Shown here one piece after another: positions 10,479 through 61,600 of a stretch of DNA of 64,000 bases (position 1 is its first letter; the number at the start of each line of letters is the position of its first letter). Source of the DNA: a candidate division WOR-3 bacterium (lineage in GTDB: Bacteria > Hydrothermota > Tepidihabitantia > B3-TA06); the NCBI GenBank assembly GCA_023128825.1, contig JAGMDF010000082.1:8626-72625 (forward strand), written 5' to 3'. Made by a program: the position numbers and the translations under genes. The notes under the pieces were generated by a model that was not told where the DNA came from, searched no databases, and saw only the letters and a program-made list of their open reading frames with translations.

Positions 10479-10522
10479 GGGGTCCCCGCGAGAATGCGAA
10501 GCAGGCTTGCGGGGTAAAAAAA
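10479..10522 (+). repeat. Family-B hairpin repeat, copy 1 (GGGGTCCCCGC-stem/loop-GCGGGGTAAAAAAA)
   Basis: GGGGTCCCCGCGAGAATGCGAAGCAGGCTTGCGGGGTAAAAAAA. Tandem with copy 2 at a 45-nt period. Confidence 0.8.
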
Positions 10523-10523
10523 C

Positions 10524-10566
10524 GGGGTCCCCGCAAGGAGGCGAAGCATCCTTGTGGGGTAAAAAA
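10524..10566 (+). repeat. Family-B hairpin repeat, copy 2; probable terminator of tRNA-Gln when read on the minus strand
   Basis: GGGGTCCCCGCAAGGAGGCGAAGCATCCTTGTGGGGTAAAAAA abuts the 3' end of tRNA-Gln. On the minus strand each hairpin is followed by a T-run. Confidence 0.75.
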
Positions 10567-17458: not shown

Positions 17459-17495
17459 TGTAGGGGTACGGCATGCCGTGCCCCTAGATTTTTAT
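17459..17495 (+). repeat. Family-C REP-like hairpin (TGTAGGGGTACGGCATGCCGTGCCCCTA) with T-run; probable terminator
   Basis: The 28-nt core is identical to the copy at 19967-19994. The stem is GGGGTACGGC/GCCGTGCCCC and is followed by TTTTTAT. Confidence 0.7.
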
Positions 17496-19966: not shown

Positions 19967-20003
19967 TGTAGGGGTACGGCATGCCGTGCCCCTACTTTTA
20001 TTG
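19967..20003 (+). repeat. Family-C REP-like hairpin, second copy; probable terminator
   Basis: TGTAGGGGTACGGCATGCCGTGCCCCTA followed by CTTTTATT. Same orientation as the copy at 17459. Confidence 0.7.
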
Positions 20004-42922: not shown

Positions 42923-42972
42923 TTAAATCCTCCTTTCGTCCTGCGGACAAAAGATCGGAAAAAGATTTATTG

Positions 42973-43003
42973 AAGAGCTGGTAACGTCAGCTCTTTCGTT
43001 TTT
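42973..43003. terminator. Bidirectional hairpin terminator
   Basis: AAGAGCTG-GTAACGT-CAGCTCTT with T-runs on both strands. It lies between tRNA-Leu (+) and the minus-strand operon that ends at 43042. Confidence 0.6.
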
Positions 43004-43037
43004 CTGCGATCTTTCCTGCGTGGCAGGAAAGGAGCAT
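43004..43037 (+). repeat. Family-A hairpin repeat, 4 nt from the stop codon of the minus-strand gene
   Basis: CTGCGATC-TTTCCTGC-GTG-GCAGGAAA-GGAGCAT. Confidence 0.75.
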
Positions 43038-43041
43038 AAAT

Positions 43042-52155: not shown

Positions 52156-52338
52156 AATAAAAGCCTTAATAACCCCTCCTTGGTGGGTTACCTAACTTCT
52201 TCTTAGAGCAGATGTTTGCTCTCGTTCCGTAATTATACCCCATTAGACGCAGAAATCACTCAAAAGTAAAATCCGCGTCCTCGAGACCTCGTTACTGATC
52301 TTACACACCAGACGCAAAAATTATTCAAAAGGTTTCTC

Positions 52339-52376
52339 TACCCCACGCCGTCACTACATGACGCCGCGGGGACCCC
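52339..52376 (-). repeat. Family-B hairpin repeat (minus orientation)
   Basis: The minus strand reads GGGGTCCCCGCGGCGTCATGTAGTGACGGCGTGGGGTA, close to the copy at 61013. Confidence 0.7.
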
Positions 52377-52382
52377 GACTTA

Positions 52383-52414
52383 ACGCTCCTTTTTGCATAC
52401 GCAAAAAGATCGCG
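52383..52414 (-). repeat. Family-A hairpin repeat (minus orientation, variant flank ACGCTCC)
   Basis: The plus strand reads ACGCTCC-TTTTTGC-ATAC-GCAAAAA-GATCGCG. Confidence 0.65.
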
Positions 52415-52537
52415 ATTTAATACACCTCTATTCAAAAGGTGACTCATCTTATCCCTCCCCCTCCCACACACAGCATGAGAGACCACTCCTGCTATAAATT
52501 AAGGGGACGGCCACAGCCGCCCCCTTAAGATTTCTCT

Positions 52538-52571
52538 CTGCGACCTTTCTCCCCATGGGAGAAAGGAGCAT
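52538..52571 (+). repeat. Family-A hairpin repeat, 2 nt from the stop codon of the PorV-like gene
   Basis: CTGCGACC-TTTCTCCC-CAT-GGGAGAAA-GGAGCAT. Confidence 0.75.
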
Positions 52572-52573
52572 TT

Positions 52574-53656
52574 TTAAAACGCTATTCCCAGCGAAGCGCG
52601 ATGAACCGGCGCTAAATACCAGTGCCACTCGAAGCTGTAGTCAACCGCTACGTCGTAGCTTCCGACAGGTATCTTGACGCCAAGCCCTGCCGAGGGGCCG
52701 CGGGTGTTGCGGTTAGAAAGCACTTCACGAGCAATAGTGGCGGCATCAACGGATGTGGTGCCTTCTTCGTCGTCTCCAAAATCGGGTGCGGTGTTGAGAC
52801 CTAAACCCAGGCGCAAGAAAAGCGTCTCGTTGAGCCCATACTCCAGGCCGATGGCACCCTTGGCAGGCTGGTCCGATATATGAGCGAAATCCGCTGTCAT
52901 GGTAAGACGTGAGGGGGGACCTTCAATAAGGTCTATGGCCACACCGCCAGCAAATGTGAAGGGCATGTGGAAAGGTTCGGATTTGTAGGTGGACGGTATG
53001 TCCTCGGTCTGAAGGGTATCCTTTCTGGTGTTGAAGATGAGACCTTCACCTTTGTATGCCATGTCCGGACCGAAGTGCTGCACCACGAATCCCAACCTGA
53101 AGTTGCGTATCCCGACGTTATAGGTAGCACCGACATCAACCGCGAATCCCCAGGCGGCAACTCGATGCAGGGTAAGGTCGATGGCTTTAAGGGTGACACC
53201 CGCCGAGAACTTTTCAGTCATCTTGCGTCCATAGGATATACCCACCGCGTAGTTGTTGGCCATGTAGTAGTTACCCGTACCGTCTTGATCATCGTAGGTC
53301 GTGATTTCAATCGGGCCGGAAAGGTGCGCGAGAACCTGAAAACCTAACGCGTCGAGTTCGCTTAAGGGAACTCCGAGTGCAAGATTCTCTTCAAGCATGC
53401 CGGCAAAGAGGATCGCCTGCCCGAAGGTCCCGGCTATCCTGTCCATATTAGCTATCCCGGCCGGGTTCCAGAATAAAGCGTCCGGTCCGTCGGCCAAGGC
53501 GGTATAGGCACACCCCATAGCTATGGGGCGGGCACCGCCGCCCATCGTAAGGAAGGACACGGAGGCACCGGACCCACCCAGACGTGCCGAAAGCGGCGTC
53601 GCGATCACCGCCAGGGCCAGGATGCTGAGGACAAGGAGTCTTCTACTCGTCTTCAT
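52574..53656 (-). CDS. PorV/PorQ-family outer-membrane beta-barrel
   Basis: Signal MKTSRRLLVLSILALAVIATPLSA. Signature GGGARPIAMGCAYTALADGPDALFWNPAGIANM. Terminal aromatic residue (GIAF). Confidence 0.75.
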   Translation of the reverse strand: MKTSRRLLVLSILALAVIATPLSARLGGSGASVSFLTMGGGARPIAMGCAYTALADGPDALFWNPAGIANMDRIAGTFGQAILFAGMLEENLALGVPLSELDALGFQVLAHLSGPIEITTYDDQDGTGNYYMANNYAVGISYGRKMTEKFSAGVTLKAIDLTLHRVAAWGFAVDVGATYNVGIRNFRLGFVVQHFGPDMAYKGEGLIFNTRKDTLQTEDIPSTYKSEPFHMPFTFAGGVAIDLIEGPPSRLTMTADFAHISDQPAKGAIGLEYGLNETLFLRLGLGLNTAPDFGDDEEGTTSVDAATIAREVLSNRNTRGPSAGLGVKIPVGSYDVAVDYSFEWHWYLAPVHRASLGIAF

Positions 53657-53665
53657 CTTTTCCTC

Positions 53666-56600
53666 CTACCGGATGATGGCAAACTTGCCAACTTTGGTTT
53701 TCTTCTTGCCGTCCGAGGTTTCGGCCTCAACCTGCCAGATATACAAGCCGCTTGTACAGTCCATTCCTGCTTCGGTTAAGAGATCCCATTCCTCGGAACC
53801 TGCAGCTCCATAGAGGCCTTCTCCATCGTGCTCGATCGTACGAATCAAAAGACCCGCCGAGTTGAAGATCCTGATACTACACTTGAGGGGCAGGCGCTGG
53901 AAGATCACGTGACGGTCGTACTGACTGCGATCCCAGGGGGCGCGTACGTAGTAGGGGTTGGGAACAACCCGGACGTCGTCAAGGGTCTGGGTGGTGTCGT
54001 CTTCATCCAAACGAGCTGCAAACGTAGTGTAGCGGAAGCGATCCTCTTCGCTGGTAGCTTTGAGCGTCTTTATGAGGAACTTGTCCCCGGGCTCAGGCGG
54101 TATAACGTACCTTGTGGTGTCCCAACCTATCGTGTCGTTAGTAACGGTATCGACAATCGGCCTCCGGGTCGTAGCCGTGTCAACGAAGGAGAGTTTGAAC
54201 ACCTCCTTACCAGGCTTTATCTCTTCCCAGTAGATGGAAACACTGGTGTTGCCCGTGATGTCCAAGCGATCAATGTTCGGGTCGCCGTCTTTATTCCATA
54301 GGAAAGATTCCACCGGCTCGTTATTATCGTATCGATTAACCACCACAGGGCCCCACCGATCTTTACCATCTTGTGCGCTGTCAACCACTGTTACAAGGTA
54401 ATCGATGGTGTAGGGAACAGGTCTTCCTCGAATTGCGTTGGTCCAATCCATATTCCAATACATGTCGGTCTTAGAGGGTCTCTCGAGCCAGCCGGTATAG
54501 AGGGTGTCAATCAACTCCTCGACATCCAGGGTGTCAATGGGAACAGAGGCAACCTGAACCAGCACCCCGTCGATGATCGGACCGCTCAGCTCGCCCGCGT
54601 GCGTAAGGAAGCTGTCGAGAACGAGGGAGTCGGCATCAACGTCCTTGAAGTAGGCGTACTTGATGATGTCCAGGGTGTCTATCGTCACATCCGATCCTTC
54701 GATAATGGTATCGATCCTGGTCACCGCGCGGAAGCCGACCTCGTACTCGTGGCCTGTGATCTCGTCCGGGGAGATGAGGCTGTCTCTAACCAGCGCGCTG
54801 CCGTCGCCAGCAACACGAATTACCGGCCCGACCATCGCATCCTGCCAGCCCATCGGGTTGGAGCGGGAAACCGCCCAGTAGGTTTTGCCGGTCTTGCCGC
54901 CTTCAAGCGACTCCACACCTTCGGTGGGTTGAGGTTTAGAATAGGATGTAACGGAGTAGTAGTAGATCTGACCGTTGCGAACATCCTCATCGACGTAGTA
55001 GTGACGCACGCCGACCTGCCCGCCGAGCTGAGTTTCGGTGTAAGTGTTAATGGTGAAGACCTCGCCGTGAATCGGTTCAAGGATGTCTCCAGTAGCGCCT
55101 GAGTCGGCGTCTGAGATGCAGTACTGCCCGCCGTCGATAAAGATTATATCTCCGGACTCGTAGGGATAGTAGTGGGGGCCGTCGACGCCGCCGGTAATCG
55201 GGTCTGCATTGGTTACCGTAACTCCGGGCAAAACAGGCTTAACGATGGTGGTGATCTGACCGGCCGTGACGTTACCTACAGTACCAGCTACCCTTGCCTC
55301 GATATTAACGTCCACCGGGGTTCCCGGAGGGTCAATCGTCCCGTTTTGCGTAGTCTCGAACTCCACGTATCCGAAGACAGGGTTGTCTGCATCGGTGGCG
55401 ACGATTGTACCTTTGGGAATCAGCGTGTCACCGGGACCAGGAGTAAAGGTCACTTTACCCTTGGCTTTTACCGCTGCGGGAAAAGCCTTGGGGGTGCCGT
55501 TGAGTTTGTCAAGCACGCAGTAACCACTTTCTTCAAGGGCATCGGGGTTGTAGGTCAGGATGTTCTGGGTTGCAACGTCATAGACGATGTAATACTTGTA
55601 AGAGGTGTCCTTCTTGTCCTGCTGGAATGTGAGGGTGTAGGTGTTGGGCTCGAATCCGTACTCGGCTGGTTCCTTGCGAGTGAATTCATTGTAGTATACC
55701 TCAAGGAACTCGATGCTGGCCTTGCTCGGCCCGGATGTGTGTTCGACAACGGCCGTATCCGGATTTTTCGAATCCTTCAGATCGTAGTCGCCAAGGAGTT
55801 GCCAGGTCTCTGAGAGCCCCGAAAGACTCTTGTAGATCCGGTAACCTTCAAAGGTCGGCTGACCGCTCATCGGATCAATATAGTGCTCAGATTCACTGCC
55901 CCAGGTAAGATAGACTACGCTGTCGCCGGGAATCACCGAAAGGGAGGGGTTCGGAGGAGGTGCGTAGCCGAAGTAACCGTTCTCGAACTGAATCTTAGCA
56001 GACTTGGCCTTCTCTTTGAGTTCATCAAAAGAGTAGGCAACGATCACCGCGATGGTTAACTCCACCTCTTCATCAGGCTTCAGGTGCGGATAAGGGCCGC
56101 AGTTCATGAGCATGCGTACGTCGTTAGGCTTATCATAAGTCCAAAACTCCGTATGGGCCATGTAAGCGTACTTGAGACTGTCCTGTCCCAGGTTGTCTAT
56201 CTCATAACCGTTCGGCCAGGTCTCGAAGCCTGTTAGTCCGATATCCAGAGGGGTATCGAGGAAAACAGCACCTATGTATCCTGCCGGGGTAACCCAGCCT
56301 TCCTCCGAGCCGTTGGCATCGTAGGTGTAACCCATGTTGAGTTCCTGATCGAACCCGATCAGATCGTCCCAGAAACCGTCATCACCTGCACTGGTTCCAC
56401 CCTCTCCGATGTCGTTGTCCATGAAGAAGGAGAAGTAGACCGAATCCAGCGGGAAGTCGTTCATATTCCTAATCTTGTAGTTGATGAAGATGTAGGAATT
56501 GTTGTACTCGTAGTTCCAGGCATACGTACGCTGCTCGATTCTTAGCCCCTGCCCACGCAAGTCGTAGGCACCTGTTGAGAGTATCCATATGCACGTGGCG

Positions 56601-57349
56601 TCGTTGGCCGGAATCCAGTCCCCGCCGCAGGCGTAGCTATCCTGCTCGGAGATGATGTCTCCGTTTCCAAAGGGACCAGGGCTGACCTCAGGCATCTGTA
56701 TTGCACGGCGATACTTGTTGATCGTGGTATCCGTAAACGGCCAGAGCACCTGGTAGTCAAGAGGGGTAGTTCCGGGAGTGGCAAAGAGCCTTCCGCCTTC
56801 ACCGTCATACCCGTAGCCTTGAGGGATGGTCATATCACTGAAGTAAAGCCCGAGGTTGCTGATGTCGCGCATGCCGCCTGCGATTTTCATCTCCGGAGCG
56901 GCCATAGCTCCAATGTCCGAGTTAAAGGCACCCTTGGAGACGTTATAGACCATCTCGTCTCCAACCGGGTAGTGGCTGCCGACCCACAGACCCCACGCAT
57001 AGGTGTAGAACTGCTCTGAGCCTTTGGGATACTCGGCGTTCCTGCCTCTCGTGTTAGGATAAAGCCTGCTAGACTCTATGGGGAATTCCCCTCTGTATTC
57101 GTGTTCGTCTGCCGGGTGGCGGGCGAATGTGCCGCCCTGAAGGGTATTGCTGACCAGGAAGTCTGAGATGTTTCCTGCGTCTACCCACCATATCATCCAC
57201 CAGGAGGCCGCCTCGTTTGTCGCCACGGTCAAGAGACGGTTTTGATTTTGGGGTGCAAGCTGAACGTCGCTATCCATTCTGGCAAGAACGGGTAAAGCCA
57301 GAAACACGAGGCTCGCTAAAACAAGGATTGTTTTTCTTTTCATCGTCAT
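53666..57349 (-). CDS. 1227-aa secreted protein of unknown function with T9SS/FlgD-Ig-like C-terminal sorting domain
   Basis: Signal peptide MTMKRKTILVLASLVFLALPVLA. C-terminus VVPNPYYVRAPWDRSQ...CSIRIFNSAGLLIRTIEHDG...WDLLTEAGMDCTSGLYIWQVEAETSDGKKKTKVGKFAIIR. No catalytic motif recognised. Confidence 0.8.
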   Translation of the reverse strand: MTMKRKTILVLASLVFLALPVLARMDSDVQLAPQNQNRLLTVATNEAASWWMIWWVDAGNISDFLVSNTLQGGTFARHPADEHEYRGEFPIESSRLYPNTRGRNAEYPKGSEQFYTYAWGLWVGSHYPVGDEMVYNVSKGAFNSDIGAMAAPEMKIAGGMRDISNLGLYFSDMTIPQGYGYDGEGGRLFATPGTTPLDYQVLWPFTDTTINKYRRAIQMPEVSPGPFGNGDIISEQDSYACGGDWIPANDATCIWILSTGAYDLRGQGLRIEQRTYAWNYEYNNSYIFINYKIRNMNDFPLDSVYFSFFMDNDIGEGGTSAGDDGFWDDLIGFDQELNMGYTYDANGSEEGWVTPAGYIGAVFLDTPLDIGLTGFETWPNGYEIDNLGQDSLKYAYMAHTEFWTYDKPNDVRMLMNCGPYPHLKPDEEVELTIAVIVAYSFDELKEKAKSAKIQFENGYFGYAPPPNPSLSVIPGDSVVYLTWGSESEHYIDPMSGQPTFEGYRIYKSLSGLSETWQLLGDYDLKDSKNPDTAVVEHTSGPSKASIEFLEVYYNEFTRKEPAEYGFEPNTYTLTFQQDKKDTSYKYYIVYDVATQNILTYNPDALEESGYCVLDKLNGTPKAFPAAVKAKGKVTFTPGPGDTLIPKGTIVATDADNPVFGYVEFETTQNGTIDPPGTPVDVNIEARVAGTVGNVTAGQITTIVKPVLPGVTVTNADPITGGVDGPHYYPYESGDIIFIDGGQYCISDADSGATGDILEPIHGEVFTINTYTETQLGGQVGVRHYYVDEDVRNGQIYYYSVTSYSKPQPTEGVESLEGGKTGKTYWAVSRSNPMGWQDAMVGPVIRVAGDGSALVRDSLISPDEITGHEYEVGFRAVTRIDTIIEGSDVTIDTLDIIKYAYFKDVDADSLVLDSFLTHAGELSGPIIDGVLVQVASVPIDTLDVEELIDTLYTGWLERPSKTDMYWNMDWTNAIRGRPVPYTIDYLVTVVDSAQDGKDRWGPVVVNRYDNNEPVESFLWNKDGDPNIDRLDITGNTSVSIYWEEIKPGKEVFKLSFVDTATTRRPIVDTVTNDTIGWDTTRYVIPPEPGDKFLIKTLKATSEEDRFRYTTFAARLDEDDTTQTLDDVRVVPNPYYVRAPWDRSQYDRHVIFQRLPLKCSIRIFNSAGLLIRTIEHDGEGLYGAAGSEEWDLLTEAGMDCTSGLYIWQVEAETSDGKKKTKVGKFAIIR

Positions 57350-57361
57350 TTCTCCTCTGGC

Positions 57362-60300
57362 CTAAAAGCTCACACGGATGCCGAAGCGCAGCTCACGCGG
57401 AGCACCAAACATCGCCGGACTCTGAGCGTAGTAATGCTCCCAGTCAGCAACATCGGCCTGCCAGTTTTCGTATTCGTCTGCAAAGCCGTTGCTTGCGTAG
57501 TTGCGGTAGTTGGCCTCTTCGTAGACAGGGCGTCCACCGTTGTCGTCAGGGAGACCCGTATTGCTGTAAACATTCACCACGTTACGCCAGTCAAAGATGT
57601 TGCGAACATCGAAGTACGCTCCCAGCCTGAGTCTCTCTCCCAGAGGGAACCACTTCTCCAGCTTGGCATCCAGGGTCTTGGTGCCCGGCATACGCCGGGT
57701 GCCCATGGGTATTATGTTGCCGCGGGAGTCGGTTCCCCAGTAAGGCTGCCCGGAAGCGTAGTTGAACTGAACGTTCAGATTGGTCAGTCTCAAAGCTTTG
57801 ACTGAGAAGTCCGGGGCAAGATAGAAGTTCAAGTTGGCCTTGAGCGAGTGTGTAACGTCGAACTCCAACGGGTACTCGTGCTTCGGGGGCTCAAGAGCGG
57901 TGCCGCGATAGCGGTAGTAGAACTCACGCCCTGAAGAACCGGTACCCTTGGCATCCATGAAGGAGTAGGTTATATTCCAGGAAAGAAAGCGGGCTGCCCG
58001 ACGAACCAAACCCACATCGAAACCCGTGACCTTGGCAAAATCCTCGATTACGTACACGGTGTAGGTCGAAAGTTTACCCTTGTAGATTGTGTTTACGCTA
58101 CGGGTAGCCAGAAGATTCTCCTGATCCTTGTAGTAACCCTTAAGCTCAAACGCCATGTCATTGGATATGGCGTACTTGTATCCCGCCTGGTAGAAGATCG
58201 TCTTAAGAGGCGGCAGATTGGGGTTACCCAGCAGAGGTACGCCCACGGTGATGTCGGCTTCCAGATTCTCATAAAGATCCTGCAGGTTGACCGGCTGGAA
58301 GAAGTGACCGTAGGAAGCATACATCATGGATTTTTCAGACACCGCGAAGGAGATCGAAAGACGAGGGCTGAACTGGAATTTAGGCTTTGCAACTACCTTG
58401 CCGGAGTCGATGTTCTCAGGGTCAACAAAGTAGTCGGATGCAGGATGGAAGAAATCGAAGCGAACGCCCGCGTTAAGCTCCAAATCCTCGTACTTGATCT
58501 TGTCCTGAACGTAGGCCGCAGCGATGATCGGTTCCTTGTGGTAGGTATCGTTGTAGGGGTTCTCGTTGACAAACTGGATACTCTTGTAGTCGAGGAAATG
58601 ATAGTTTCCGCTCATGCCTGCCTTGAACCAGTGGACCTCGTTGGGGTTCCAGTCGAAGGAAGCGTCAGCTATGTACTTGGTGGTGTTGCGCTCCGCCCAG
58701 TAGGGGAAGAAGTAGTAACGGAAACGACGGAACAAGGGGTCGGTGTTGTAACGAACGTAATAGAGATTCCCTGAACTCTCAAGGCTGTCCTCGTAGGGAT
58801 TATCAACGGTGGTATCCTTCCAGTTCTGCCAGAGGTCGTAGTAGTGTTTGTAGAGGTCAAAATCGAAGAGGTGGTAGTGCACGCCTACGGTGTCAATTAT
58901 TGTATCCGTTCCTTCAATCCTGGTTTCAACCGTGGGCCGCCACTCGTTGACCTCGTACCAGCGCCAGTTGAGGGACTCAAGCTGCTCCTTACAGCCTACC
59001 CATCGGAATACGCTGTCGCCGTCTATAAGGTAGCCGTTCTTTTTGACGTACTCGTTGTGGAAGAACCAGACCGCGGAGTCCGGATCCTCAGTGATGGCTG
59101 AGTAGCGCTCAAGGATGTTGAAGTAAATAGAGTCCTGGGTGTTGTTGTCAACGTAGGCAAAGGTTGACTCTGGGATATAAAAGCTCATGGAGTCCGCGTT
59201 GTAGATGCGCTGTAAGGTCGAGTCTATTATGGTGTCTCCTTCTTCGGAGATGGTGGTATCATGTTCCCACCAGGTCCGACCGTAGGCCCAGGTTACCCAA
59301 TCCATCAGCATACGACCCACCATGCGGAAATCGTTGTAATGCGCGCCGTCCATGTAGGAGGTCTTGCTATGGGTGTTGAATGTACCTACGTTGACCGTGT
59401 ACGCTATCTTGTCAATACGCTGATTGACCTTGAGATTCAACTGATAGTTGTCCTGGTTAACCATAGGTCCATTCTGTAACCAGATGCCTTTCGAGTAGGC
59501 GTGGCTGTAGCCATGACGCCAGGTGTTGGAGTAGTTGCCTGAAAGGGTAAACTTAGCTCCACCCTCTGTCGGTCGCCAGGCAAGCTTAAGCGTTCCGTTC
59601 TTGCGGTGCTGATCGTTGAATGGGAGTCTGTTTTCGTGTTCGAGGATGTTCCCGGAGATGAAGAAGGAGGAACGCGGCAGACCCAGCGGCCCGCCAAAGG
59701 ACAAGGATCCCTTGTTATGCCACATATCCTTGTTCGGATATTTGATCGGATCCTTACTCAGCCTCAGGTGAGCGTCGGTTTCATACTCGGCTGTGCCCTC
59801 GAATCTCTGGCTACTGCCTTCACGGGTGACGATGTTGACCACCGCGGACATCGCATCGCCGTACTCGGCATTGAAGGTGCCGGTGTTAATGGTTATCTCC
59901 TGAATAGCCGTGTTGTCTATGTAGACGCCCGATTGACCGGTCACTGGATCGTTGGCGTTGATACCGTCAACCACGTAGACCACCTCGTTGGTTCGGCCGC
60001 CCTGGATGTGCAGACCTGACGAGTAGCCACTCGCAGTCTCGGTAGCTCCAGCTACAAGCCTTACAACGTCCTGGTAGTTATCCACCGGCATACGTATGAT
60101 CTCCCCACGCTCTATGGGATGTGGCTCCGTTGTGAGAAGCGGGCGGGTGGCCGTAATTATTTGCACCGGCATATCGATGCTTCCGGGCTTTAACCTTGCA
60201 TCCTGTTTGGTAACCTGGTCGGCCGTAACCTTGACACCGCTCACCACAACAACCTGGTAGCCAATCATCGAGAACTCAAGGGTGTATTCGCCGGCACGAA

Positions 60301-60514
60301 GGTTAGAGATCACGTAGGTTCCATCCATGCCGGTTGCAGCACCAGTGACGGACTCACCATTCTGTCGCACGATGACGTTTACAGAGGGCAGTGGATCTCC
60401 TGTTCCGGCGTCTCTTACCCGCCCGGTGATCTTCCCCATGATACCGGCCATTAAAAGACCTGGAATGAGAAGTAACACCATGGCGAGAAAGACGCCCCTT
60501 ACTTTTACTCTCAC
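57362..60514 (-). CDS. TonB-dependent receptor with N-terminal carboxypeptidase-regulatory-like domain
   Basis: GKITGRVRDAGTGDPLPSVNVIV (CarbopepD_reg), plug region VVRLVAGATE...LHIQGGRTNEVVYVVDGINANDP, and barrel terminus RELRFGIRVSF. GTG start behind AGGAGG. Confidence 0.85.
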   Translation of the reverse strand: MRVKVRGVFLAMVLLLIPGLLMAGIMGKITGRVRDAGTGDPLPSVNVIVRQNGESVTGAATGMDGTYVISNLRAGEYTLEFSMIGYQVVVVSGVKVTADQVTKQDARLKPGSIDMPVQIITATRPLLTTEPHPIERGEIIRMPVDNYQDVVRLVAGATETASGYSSGLHIQGGRTNEVVYVVDGINANDPVTGQSGVYIDNTAIQEITINTGTFNAEYGDAMSAVVNIVTREGSSQRFEGTAEYETDAHLRLSKDPIKYPNKDMWHNKGSLSFGGPLGLPRSSFFISGNILEHENRLPFNDQHRKNGTLKLAWRPTEGGAKFTLSGNYSNTWRHGYSHAYSKGIWLQNGPMVNQDNYQLNLKVNQRIDKIAYTVNVGTFNTHSKTSYMDGAHYNDFRMVGRMLMDWVTWAYGRTWWEHDTTISEEGDTIIDSTLQRIYNADSMSFYIPESTFAYVDNNTQDSIYFNILERYSAITEDPDSAVWFFHNEYVKKNGYLIDGDSVFRWVGCKEQLESLNWRWYEVNEWRPTVETRIEGTDTIIDTVGVHYHLFDFDLYKHYYDLWQNWKDTTVDNPYEDSLESSGNLYYVRYNTDPLFRRFRYYFFPYWAERNTTKYIADASFDWNPNEVHWFKAGMSGNYHFLDYKSIQFVNENPYNDTYHKEPIIAAAYVQDKIKYEDLELNAGVRFDFFHPASDYFVDPENIDSGKVVAKPKFQFSPRLSISFAVSEKSMMYASYGHFFQPVNLQDLYENLEADITVGVPLLGNPNLPPLKTIFYQAGYKYAISNDMAFELKGYYKDQENLLATRSVNTIYKGKLSTYTVYVIEDFAKVTGFDVGLVRRAARFLSWNITYSFMDAKGTGSSGREFYYRYRGTALEPPKHEYPLEFDVTHSLKANLNFYLAPDFSVKALRLTNLNVQFNYASGQPYWGTDSRGNIIPMGTRRMPGTKTLDAKLEKWFPLGERLRLGAYFDVRNIFDWRNVVNVYSNTGLPDDNGGRPVYEEANYRNYASNGFADEYENWQADVADWEHYYAQSPAMFGAPRELRFGIRVSF

Positions 60515-60850
60515 GTTAAACCTCCTAGCTCTAGCTGGATGGGTTTTTCAACATAACTCTATGTGAACTGGGGTCGGAATACTCCGATTACAAAGAATTG
60601 ACGCACCTCCTTTTCTTTCGTGGGAATTCACACTTTGACATTCACTCATAATAACCGTCCGTTTTTGCAGGCCGCCCTAGAAAGCCCAACATTAACTCAT
60701 CTGCTCAAGAGGGTTACACGGGGAGACAATCCAACTCCTTCGTGTATACCTTCGTATTTGAGTATAGGTTTCTTTCCTGACTTGTCAAGTGGTAGGAAAT
60801 CTGTGCGCCAGGAGATCATTGCCAGGGGGTGGGCCTACATTTAACAAACC

Positions 60851-60901
60851 GTGTGGAACGGGCTCTCTAGCCCGTTCTTTTATATTATGCACAGGCTGGA
60901 G
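60851..60901 (+). repeat. Family-D direct repeat, copy 1 (about 52 nt, contains a terminator-like hairpin)
   Basis: GTGTGGAACGGGCTCTCTAGCCCGTTCTTTTATATTATGCACAGGCTGGAG. Hairpin GAACGGGC-TCTCTA-GCCCGTTC followed by TTTTAT. Confidence 0.8.
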
Positions 60902-60962
60902 CACCCGACGGGGGTACACTGGTATGGAGTGCGACAACGCGGTTGTCGCACTCCAAAGTTAT

Positions 60963-60997
60963 ATGCTCCTTTTTACCTGGCGGTAAAAAGATCGCAG
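60963..60997 (-). repeat. Family-A hairpin repeat (minus orientation)
   Basis: The plus strand reads ATGCTCC-TTTTTACC-TGGC-GGTAAAAA-GATCGCAG. Confidence 0.75.
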
Positions 60998-61012
60998 TAT
61001 AGAACTGTCCTA

Positions 61013-61053
61013 GGGGTCCCCGCGGCGTTACGAAGTAACGGCGTGGGGTAAAG
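61013..61053 (+). repeat. Family-B hairpin repeat
   Basis: GGGGTCCCCGCGGCGTTACGAAGTAACGGCGTGGGGTAAAG. Confidence 0.7.
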
Positions 61054-61094
61054 TTACACCTCCCCCTTGACGGGGGAGAGTAGGGAGGGGGATT

Positions 61095-61132
61095 GTCATT
61101 GCGAGCGAACGAAGTGAGCGAAGCAATCTCGT
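61095..61132 (-). repeat. Family-E repeat
   Basis: The plus strand reads GTCATTGCGAGCGAACGAAGTGAGCGAAGCAATCTCGT. The minus strand reads GAGATTGCTTCGCTCACTTCGTTCGCTCGCAATGAC. Confidence 0.6.
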
Positions 61133-61241
61133 AAAGATGACAAAGGCGTCTCAGTCATTATGAGGAGCGAGTGTTCGTGACGAGCGACATGACACCGAAG
61201 GACGACGCTTGCGGAGTAATCTCATTCTGCAAGGCGGTGCT

Positions 61242-61297
61242 ATGAGATCGCCACACTTCCCCGCCTCTTACGAGGCGGACGGTCGGTCGCGATGACA
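61242..61297 (+). repeat. Family-E repeat
   Basis: ATGAGATCGCCACACTTCCCCGCCTCTTACGAGGCGGACGGTCGGTCGCGATGACA, with internal hairpin CCGCCTC-TTAC-GAGGCGG. Confidence 0.6.
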
Positions 61298-61361
61298 TTT
61301 AATCTTCCCCTCCCCTGGTGGGAGGGGTCGGAGACGAAGTCGACGGGGGAAGGGGAAACAT

Positions 61362-61395
61362 ATGCTCCTTTTCGCCTGTGGCGAAAAGATCGCAG
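61362..61395 (-). repeat. Family-A hairpin repeat (minus orientation)
   Basis: The plus strand reads ATGCTCC-TTTTCGCC-TGT-GGCGAAAA-GATCGCAG. Confidence 0.75.
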
Positions 61396-61440
61396 AGAAA
61401 GAATCGGTACATTCCCTTCGGGAATAGCTAGCGGCCCCGC

Positions 61441-61492
61441 GTGTGGAACGGGCTCTCTAGCCCGTTCTTTTATGATTATCCACAGGCTGGAG
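61441..61492 (+). repeat. Family-D direct repeat, copy 2
   Basis: GTGTGGAACGGGCTCTCTAGCCCGTTCTTTTATGATTATCCACAGGCTGGAG. It differs from copy 1 by one indel and one substitution. Confidence 0.8.
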
Positions 61493-61600
61493 AGCCTGTG
61501 CTACATTAAAGATATCCAATCTGTGTAAGTATTTTGAGGTTGAGTGCATAGATTTACTGGAATTCTTCCGTAGACAAAAGTGGGTTTTCAGGCATCAGGG

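Follow-up and report, generated by a model that had tools for sequence, protein, structure and literature searches.

A probable graveyard of REP/BIME-like repeats at a strain-variable site upstream of a receptor operon promoter in a candidate division WOR-3 bacterium

What is a hairpin-rich stretch of 1.1 kb doing immediately upstream of a receptor operon? This question was raised by positions 60515-61600 of a 64-kb stretch of DNA (contig JAGMDF010000082.1; the whole stretch is referred to here as the window) from a metagenome-assembled Candidatus Stahlbacteria/candidate division WOR-3 bacterium. The closest named relatives of the receptor gene belong to metagenome-assembled genomes (MAGs) of WOR-3 and Stahlbacteria. 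A preliminary description of the region had proposed that it was a landing pad or graveyard for miniature mobile elements, a long structured 5' leader or non-coding RNA (ncRNA) locus controlling the operon, or a recombination hotspot. The analysis presented here indicated that it is probably a graveyard of repeats similar to repetitive extragenic palindromic (REP) sequences and bacterial interspersed mosaic elements (BIMEs), located in a strain-variable recombination hotspot upstream of the operon promoter, and not a leader or an ncRNA.

The flanking genes were found where they had been described. The GTG start, at 60514, of a 1050-aa CarboxypepD_reg/Plug receptor-like protein (57362-60514) lies on one side, the stop, at 61601, of a 162-aa NlpC/P60 protein (61601-62089) lies on the other, and both genes are on the minus strand; the region lies 3' of nlpC/P60 and 5' of the receptor operon. 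It consists of two unrelated adjoining parts, a promoter with its leader (60515-60790) and a repeat mosaic (60850-61512). The idea that the whole 1.1 kb was packed with repeats did not hold, since the first ~275 nt (60515-60790) carry no member of any repeat family and only a single short hairpin, at the Shine-Dalgarno (SD) sequence. The mosaic, on the other hand, is the densest spot of the window: nine perfect hairpins with a stem of at least 7 bp were counted between 60845 and 61520 (13.3 per kb), compared with 38 in the whole 64 kb (0.59 per kb) and with a chance expectation of 0.21 ± 0.45 in first-order Markov simulations. Folding of the same interval departed strongly from that of shuffled sequences (z = -12.5 for the plus-strand DNA and -7.5 for the minus-strand RNA). 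The remaining 3' untranslated stretch of the NlpC/P60 gene (61513-61600, minus strand) is repeat-free and is missing in locus L235.

The mosaic is delimited by two copies of a repeat, D, placed 590 nt apart in direct orientation and identical over their initial 34 nt. They had been described as a pair of ~52-nt repeats; the two direct copies (60850-60901 and 61440-61492) do exist, but the true unit measures 75 nt and the first copy is truncated. The full-length D2 (61440-61512, plus strand) is made of a terminator-like hairpin 1, a hairpin 2 (CACAGGCU-GGAG-AGCCUGUG) and a tail (CUACAUUAAAGA), and D1 (60850-60901, plus strand) contains the first 52 nt of the unit, ending in the loop of hairpin 2. 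Hairpin 1, GAACGGGCU-CUCU-AGCCCGUUC followed by UUUUAU, is terminator-like on the plus strand. In L235 (1502-1560) the loop of the D1-side hairpin 2 is inverted (CUCC versus GGAG), which is what an inversion across the arms of the hairpin would produce.

Reading from D1 towards D2, the first element is a perfect hairpin with a 14-bp stem and a GCG loop (60925-60955), of which no further copy was found among the compared loci. In L005/L007 and in the strain contig G543, an insertion of ~70-77 nt with a B unit inside interrupts its 3' arm; insertions have taken place both into and beside existing hairpins. The hairpin is followed, on the plus strand, by the unit A1 of family A (60961-60997) and by a B unit (61013-61052). 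The next element, F' (61060-61091), joins a G/C-rich hairpin, CUCCCCC-UUGAC-GGGGGAG (61060-61078), which is also present in L233, to a GTAG-tagged half palindrome, GTAGGGAGGGGG (61080-61091).

E elements occupy the centre of the block. E1 (61093-61143, plus strand) is a TGTC-tagged REP unit with the layout (U)GUC-AUUGC-GAG...GAA-GCAAU-CUC. E3 (61242-61297, minus strand) is inverted, with the stem AUCGC/GCGAU and the inner hairpin CCGCCUC-GUAA-GAGGCGG, and in the predicted fold it pairs with E1 as a head-to-head dimer. At least two E elements had been announced, and a third, longer one was added between them: E2 (61153-61225, plus strand), nested between E1 and E3, is a diverged unit with the tag AGTC and the stem AUUAU/GUAAU, in which direct reading of the sequence points to compensatory or wobble changes relative to E1.

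Towards D2, the F module (61307-61358) comprises the hairpin CCCCUCCC-CUGGU-GGGAGGGG (61307-61327), the mini-hairpin GACGAAGUC and a G-rich tail; it is 94% common to G543 and L236, and its hairpin is found in L235 as well. The G/C-rich hairpins formerly taken as isolated are a further family, F (hairpin of ~20 nt), also present in L233, L235 and G543. The unit A2 (61360-61395, plus strand) and a small hairpin, AUUCCC-UUC-GGGAAU (61411-61425), common to L232, L235 and L236, complete the block. All of the repeats and hairpins of the preliminary description were recovered, with coordinates off by 1-2 nt at most. The small open reading frames (ORFs) in or beside the block (60620-61528) had no Pfam match. 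An Rfam scan of the whole window at the gathering threshold returned three tRNAs only, a permissive scan of 60300-61800 gave just sub-threshold microRNA and sRNA noise and no family for either the leader or the block, and no tRNA or tmRNA remnants were found in the region.

Every family of the mosaic recurs elsewhere in the window, always between genes, and A, B and E occur in other Stahlbacteria; one such contig (L018) contains four A, two B and two E units in 23 kb. The A, B and E copies of the window are all intergenic and often lie directly past a stop codon or a tRNA. They are dispersed extragenic palindromic families with hairpins maintained by compensation. Family A (~36 nt) has the layout AUAUGCUCC-UUU-stem-loop-stem-AAA-GAUCGCAG, with the 5' box AUGCUCC. 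The 15 distinct true A units from Stahlbacteria contigs have at least 10 different, fully complementary stems between constant GCUCC...GAUCGC boxes, and over all 17 pattern matches the stems averaged 6.6 consecutive pairs, versus 0.66 when shuffled. Eight copies are present in the window (14587, 21870, 42930, 43007, 52386, 52541, 60966, and 61365), three of them 0-14 nt past tRNA-Leu or a stop codon; the pairs 42930/43007 and 52386/52541 are inverted and A1/A2 are direct. The six matches in viral contigs, about half with a hairpin, were near the chance number, so that A could be demonstrated in Stahlbacteria only.

Family B (40 nt) has the layout GGGGUCCCCGC-stem-YGWAG-stem-GYGGGGUA, with the loop CGAAG and the end GYGGGGUAAA in the copy at 61013. 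The window holds four or five copies (10481, 10526, 52337, and 61015): the exact pattern matched three times, versus none in shuffles, and the minus strand carries a fourth copy, at 52337. Others were found in Stahlbacteria L005, L015 and L018 and in 22 IMG/VR stretches (23 matches), nearly all with compensated stems. Only strict matches were counted for this family, because most hits of a first relaxed pattern were false positives.

Family E, (U/C)GUC-AUUGC-GAG-variable hairpin-GAA/GUG-GCAAU-CUC (28-85 nt), has five copies in the window (47553, 47712, 61095, 61154, and 61244), which include the head-to-head dimers E1/E3 and 47553/47712, and its stems vary with compensation like those of A and B. 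It is widely distributed, being detected in one Stahlbacteria MAG, one Fermentibacteria MAG, one unclassified MAG, at least 120 IMG/VR stretches, and plasmids or chromids of Nostocales, sphingomonads, methylotrophs and some Gammaproteobacteria. The units of Novosphingobium, of the type CGTC...CCA, form head-to-head dimers 24 nt apart. Among the matches listed for viral contigs, 472 relaxed copies occurred in 1.0 Mb, 27% of them with an inverted partner within 200 nt; close pairs were convergent (tags outward) in 47 cases and divergent in 21; and the base preceding GTCATTGC was T in 77% and C in 17% of 235 copies. The gaps of the convergent pairs were 6-35 nt. Within the IMG/VR loci L083-L202, up to six strict E copies were seen, among the matches listed, in one contig of 6.6 kb. 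Either these repeats are common in proviruses or many of the contigs labelled as viral are cellular. The orientation of E relative to co-directional genes was balanced (32 same, 34 opposite), and this lack of strand bias argues for a DNA-level element rather than a strand-specific RNA motif. Furthermore, many B and E loops read C-GAA-G or GCGAAGC, and PMC13037366 describes GCGAAGC as an extraordinarily stable mini-hairpin motif when present as DNA. Such loops give a weak hint that B and E may form hairpins in single-stranded DNA.

Several of the copies lie in smaller groups. Two tandem B units (10479-10563) are directly 3' of tRNA-Gln, and an inverted A pair (42925-43040) stands on either side of a bidirectional terminator that separates tRNA-Leu from the end of a convergent gene; these positions indicate that the repeats sit at RNA 3' ends. 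Smaller mosaics were noted at 52330-52570, with B on the minus strand, A on the plus strand, a C-rich tract, a hairpin and A on the minus strand, and at 47450-47800, with a B-like unit followed by E on the plus and E on the minus strand. Apart from families A-F, two 94% identical GTAG-tagged palindromes, UGUAGGGGUACGGCAUGCCGUGCCCCUA (17459-17491 and 19967-19999), correspond to the classical GTAG type of REP.

Family E was set against the CGTC-tagged REP superfamily through the descriptors given by Di Nocera, De Gregorio & Rocco (2013; PMC3733652). These authors distinguish four families and place Neisseria dRS3 and Rickettsia RPE-4 and RPE-6 in the superfamily; they describe a tag that is often TGTC (also CCTC), stems of 8-9 bp that start with two A-T pairs, loops of 4-5 nt (variable only in Bradyrhizobium, Kosmotoga and Mesotoga) and a 3-nt tail; and they report mostly head-to-head dimers, rarely clustered, that are extragenic, have no associated transposase and occur in several phyla, including Alphaproteobacteria. 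E has the tag TGTC in E1, E3, 47553 and 47712, AGTC in E2 and CGTC in Novosphingobium; its stems AUUGC/GCAAU, AUCGC/GCGAU and AUUAU/GUAAU open with two A-T pairs and end in a 3-nt tail; and it is extragenic, has dimers that are mostly head-to-head, and is spread over several phyla with sphingomonads among its hosts and with no transposase seen. Nevertheless, its outer stem has 5 bp, its internal loop is GA/GAA (or GA/GUG), its inner hairpin has a core of 7-24 nt or more, its tail is CUC in this bacterium and CCA in the superfamily and in Novosphingobium, and it is clustered in the block. E fits the CGTC/TGTC superfamily in tag, stem start, tail and dimers, and departs from it in the dimensions of stem and loop. 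No sequence matching E was present in the supplements of PMC3733652, and the E strings searched in the literature matched primer coincidences only.

The block as a whole resembles the enterobacterial REP/BIME arrays, being made of short imperfect palindromes of several types, arranged as mosaics in both orientations, extragenic, downstream of genes and variable among strains. All of the units are hairpins, and their sizes (A ~36, B 40, E 28-85, and F ~20 nt) can be compared with the 20-60 bp of REPs. A and B have the general properties of REPs and carry neither of the published tags. In contrast to the enterobacterial arrays, A, B and E lack the GTAG tag, which in this region is seen only in the half unit at 61080-61091 and elsewhere only in the separate pair 17459/19967; at least five families are packed within 650 bp; and the array is bounded by terminator-bearing direct repeats. 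Inverted doublets predicted to fold as one long hairpin (E1/E3, 47553/47712, and Novosphingobium), singlets that look like decayed remnants and the occurrence of higher-order clusters recall the REP doublets (REPINs) mobilized with REP-associated tyrosine transposases (RAYTs) (Bertels and Rainey, 2011; PMC3116915). However, the stems found within one genome are far more diverse than those of REPIN populations, and no RAYT (Y1 transposase) was present in the Pfam list for the 64-kb window and ~10-kb flanks. Single units have no terminal inverted repeats, unlike miniature inverted-repeat transposable elements.

Additionally, the site was compared among strains. A scan of JGI metagenomes with the D pattern gave seven copies, and across near-conspecific strains the D1-D2 interval measured 0, 0.54, 1.07 or 2.9 kb. 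In L237, only one full-length D stands between the left (receptor-promoter) and right (nlpC/P60) flanks of the window, and the 590-bp unit formed by one D and the block is missing. The allele of the window (0.54 kb) contains repeats only, and that of L235 (1.07 kb) carries one XRE cassette and is devoid of the hairpin, A1, B and E units of the window. The 2.9-kb allele of G543 (L232 and L234, adjacent pieces of one 280-kb contig, Ga0315543_1000010) has both ends as in the window, and its interval includes, in order, the perfect hairpin split by the B insertion, a promoter with two ORFs, the F module and a 1.3-kb cassette made of a small ORF and two XRE-type helix-turn-helix (HTH) genes, with the stop codon of the cassette abutting A2. 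Besides the cassette, the G543 cargo includes a 202-aa membrane protein and a 187-aa ORF.

The cassette module corresponds to a 111-aa ORF with a GIY-YIG-like appearance (no Pfam match) and two paralogous XRE HTH genes (HTH_3). The F module is its left border in G543, L235 and L236, and a unit identical to A2 abuts the stop of the second XRE gene in L233 and L235, with a 1-nt variant in G543. In the window the cassette is cleanly missing between 61358 and 61362, where the junction runs exactly from ...GGGGAAAC to AUAUGCUCC. L233, from an unrelated genomic context, has two D units bracketing the same XRE cassette together with DUF5343 and Hypoth_Ymh genes, and full-length D occurs there in two other contexts. 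Moreover, 107 nt of the block (60959-61064, with A1, B and the start of F') match positions 692-586 of L233 at 94% in a different context. The block is therefore present or absent as a whole, bounded by direct repeats, its pieces are exchanged, and gene cassettes occupy the same D-bounded site elsewhere.

The left and right flanks of these alleles disagreed in their identity to the window (L237: 97.2% left, 90.9% right; G543: 94.5% left, 95.2% right), which indicated that recombination had occurred at or near the site. The block is carried by strains more distant than L237, whose left flank is the closest of all to that of the window; block loss, by recombination between D1 and D2 or by allele replacement, would therefore be the more economical history. 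In relatives at 85%, 75%, 72% and 62% identity, the spacer measures only ~290-430 nt and the leader is kept without repeats. In these relatives the upstream neighbour of the receptor gene is a divergent gene of 256-270 aa that is not found in the window. The repeat-free spacer and the different neighbour imply that the block lies at a lineage-specific rearrangement junction. These comparisons bore out two of the earlier proposals: the graveyard, since the families recur between genes, reach other Stahlbacteria (A, B, and E) and unrelated organisms (E and B) and form a strain-variable block, and the hotspot, since the D1-D2 interval varies, the flank identities are discordant and the upstream neighbour differs in distant relatives.

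The remaining proposal, a structured leader, applied to the repeat-free part only. A sigma70-type promoter for the receptor operon, TTGACA-N16-TATACT (60761-60788, minus strand; -35 at 60783-60788 and -10 at 60761-60766), is predicted between the leader and the block. It matches the consensus in 11 of 12 positions, is the sole promoter-like site in 60300-61800, and keeps both hexamers in all of the relatives. The repeats are upstream of the predicted start of transcription and dispensable in L237, so that a leader role is not supported for them; a conserved leader of ~240 nt does exist in the repeat-free part (60515-60754, minus strand), running from ~7 nt past the -10 hexamer to the GTG at 60514. 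The ~275 nt nearest to the receptor gene are conserved across relatives from 96% down to 47% protein identity. With nhmmer, the leader was recovered upstream of the orthologue in all of the WOR-3/Stahlbacteria relatives (47-96% protein identity, E 1e-46 to 1e-87), and it was not found with the Zixibacteria, Fermentibacteria or Marinimicrobia homologues.

Three invariant blocks were recognized in this leader, GGGCUUUCUAGGG, AAAAGGAGGU and the SD CUAGGAGGUU; AAGGAGGU is also internal to it. The 13-mer GGGCUUUCUAGGG (60675-60687, minus strand), identical in 10 of 10 distinct leaders, lies in the loop region of a local stem (YGGGCU...AGCCCR) that shows C-G to U-A and G.U variants among the relatives. 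RNAalifold pairs it with the SD (60519-60528, minus strand), which makes GGGCUUUCUAGGG a candidate anti-Shine-Dalgarno element; because both sides are invariant, this modelled pairing is beyond covariation testing. For the leader fold, compensatory changes were observed in two of the 26 predicted pairs, with a slightly unfavourable covariation term (+0.43 kcal/mol).

The leader also bears on the earlier statement that the region had no credible coding sequence, which was right for the repeat block, whose small ORFs have no Pfam match, and less so for the leader, which keeps an upstream open frame of 33 codons (60548-60649, minus strand) with its ATG at 60647-60649 preceded by GGAYGG. The invariant SD-like AAAAGGAGGU (60605-60614, minus strand) lies within this frame. 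The frame stays open despite indels in eight of the nine leaders where the ATG could be located: it has 33 codons in the window and in its 96% relative, and 42-54 codons in six of the seven other leaders, mostly ending as an ATGA overlap with the receptor start. The only invariant residues of the peptide are GG and no codon-position bias was found among the substitutions of the frame, which ruled out a conserved small protein. At most, the act of translating the frame would be selected, not its peptide, and a translation-coupled or SD-sequestering control of the receptor operon is plausible. In a relative at 61% (L013/L014/L020, 1843-3000), a 1.16-kb AT-rich gap free of the repeat families and of any called gene was seen upstream of the leader.

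Under the preferred reading as a repeat graveyard, the block would occupy the spacer left by the rearrangement that put nlpC/P60 beside the receptor operon. The units would spread as non-autonomous hairpin DNA in the manner of REPs and REPINs, probably as single-stranded DNA and preferentially into or beside existing hairpins, and recombination between D copies and between strains would then delete or swap the content. Any benefits would be incidental, such as a block to nlpC/P60 read-through, protection of the nlpC/P60 3' end, or plus-strand termination by D. The D terminator lies downstream of the plus-strand cargo genes in sister strains and is orphaned in the window. As terminator prediction gave no canonical minus-strand site from nlpC/P60 to the receptor promoter, the hairpins of the block may impede read-through or exonucleases, as has been proposed for REPs; such roles at the RNA level are putative readings of the sequence.

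Four observations weigh against this reading. No gene for a transposase, RAYT or integrase appears in the Pfam list for the ~10 kb around the site, and none was found among the cargo genes that other strains carry. One insertion (L005/G543) has no clean target-site duplication, its flanking 8-mers matching in six of eight positions. The A, B and E stems within the genome are more diverse than a recent replicative burst would leave, and the units may be old or of another origin. Finally, the centre of the block (61065-61300, with F' and E1-E3) occurs only in the assemblies of one sample (window, L001, and L002), and a chimeric join is possible there.

Among the alternatives, the array could have been selected as an insulator or terminator and as a protector of the mRNA 3' end between the nusA-infB-...-nlpC/P60 string and the receptor operon. 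The block follows nlpC/P60 as part of its 3' untranslated region and immediately precedes the next promoter, which, like the A units found elsewhere directly past stop codons and a tRNA, would agree with such a role. Nevertheless, L237 does with a single D, the sole canonical terminators point the wrong way (plus strand), the content varies among strains, and the units occur in both orientations, so that we regard this selection as unlikely.

A bolder proposal is that A and B, and perhaps D and F, represent an undescribed class in which a hypervariable, compensated hairpin stands between two constant boxes, and that these units mark the borders of exchangeable cassettes and are handled by a hairpin-recognizing enzyme; separately, the leader, with GGGCUUUCUAGGG, a decoy SD and a coupled frame, would be a new translational control element. 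We hold this combination to be decidedly unlikely. If it were true, the D-bounded site would be a new kind of cassette-exchange locus in Stahlbacteria/WOR-3.

The alleles also suggested a site of cassette capture, loosely integron-like, in which D (perhaps A and F) would be the recombination sites and the allele of the window would have been emptied of its genes. As in integron attC arrays, direct structured repeats bracket small, strain-variable accessory cassettes (HTH_3, DUF5343, and Hypoth_Ymh), in two contexts (G543 and L233). G543, L235 and L233 agree in the borders of the GIY-like and double XRE module (left ...AGUCACC, right an A unit abutting the stop), which is cleanly missing in the window. 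In contrast to integrons, no integrase or recombinase lies within ~10 kb or in the cargo; D, as read from its sequence, has neither the R''/R' boxes of attC (RYYYAAC/GTTRRRY) nor a single long imperfect hairpin, being formed by two separate ones; each locus has two D units and no array; and the window allele is gene-free. Homologous recombination between D copies accounts for the empty allele, and a D terminator downstream of plus-strand cargo explains the association of D with cassettes without any recombination. Hence, cassette capture appeared quite improbable.

An assembly artefact, with repeats from several loci misjoined by a short-read assembler, would fit the single-sample backing of the centre (61065-61300) and the unitig contigs that break at D2 (L003) and in A1 (L004). 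Against it, three assemblies (the window, DAOWIO010000023.1 of GCA_030640845.1, and the ENA scaffold of SAMN18200505) agree within 1 nt, the last two encoding the NlpC/P60 protein identically, and independent samples confirm D1-hairpin-A1 (L004) and F-A2-hairpin-D2 (L235, as well as L232 and L236, whose A unit differs by 1 nt), with order and flanks unchanged. An artefact was therefore judged very improbable. Least probable of all, and largely refuted, is a single structured 5' leader or ncRNA spanning the whole 1.1 kb, with the hairpins as functional domains controlling the operon: folding far stronger than chance, possible read-through from nlpC/P60 given the two minus-strand flanking genes and the absence of a predicted canonical minus-strand terminator in the block speak for it, but, unlike a cis-regulatory leader RNA, the block is separated from the gene by the conserved promoter, is lacking from L237 and from every relative at or below 85% identity (the relatives, down to 47%, retain the leader without it), is replaced by genes in G543, and is built from dispersed families in both orientations with no Rfam match.

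Downstream of the leader, the receptor-like gene (operon 52574-60514, minus strand; L001 and L004-L013) is always followed by a gene for a protein of ~1100-1230 aa, which is Baseplate_J-like (PF04865) wherever a Pfam match was recorded; the closest relatives have in addition, 3' of the Baseplate_J-like gene, one for a ~360-aa protein without a Pfam match. The combination of an outer-membrane receptor with a phage-baseplate-like protein is an odd pairing, kept across WOR-3. The conserved leader makes this receptor/Baseplate_J-like operon a concrete candidate, within WOR-3, for control at the level of translation.

The kind of locus described here, a junk yard and recombination hotspot, is already familiar, and its host phylum is little studied. 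Its recognition extends REP/BIME-type biology, including the CGTC/TGTC superfamily, to Stahlbacteria/WOR-3 and Fermentibacteria, candidate phyla that are known from metagenomes only, and explains why the assemblies of these organisms break at such sites. For annotation it cautions against assuming that hairpins crowded ahead of a gene are a leader RNA. Finally, population structure and recombination in this uncultured lineage can be followed with the alleles (empty, repeats only, or with gene cassettes) as a natural marker.

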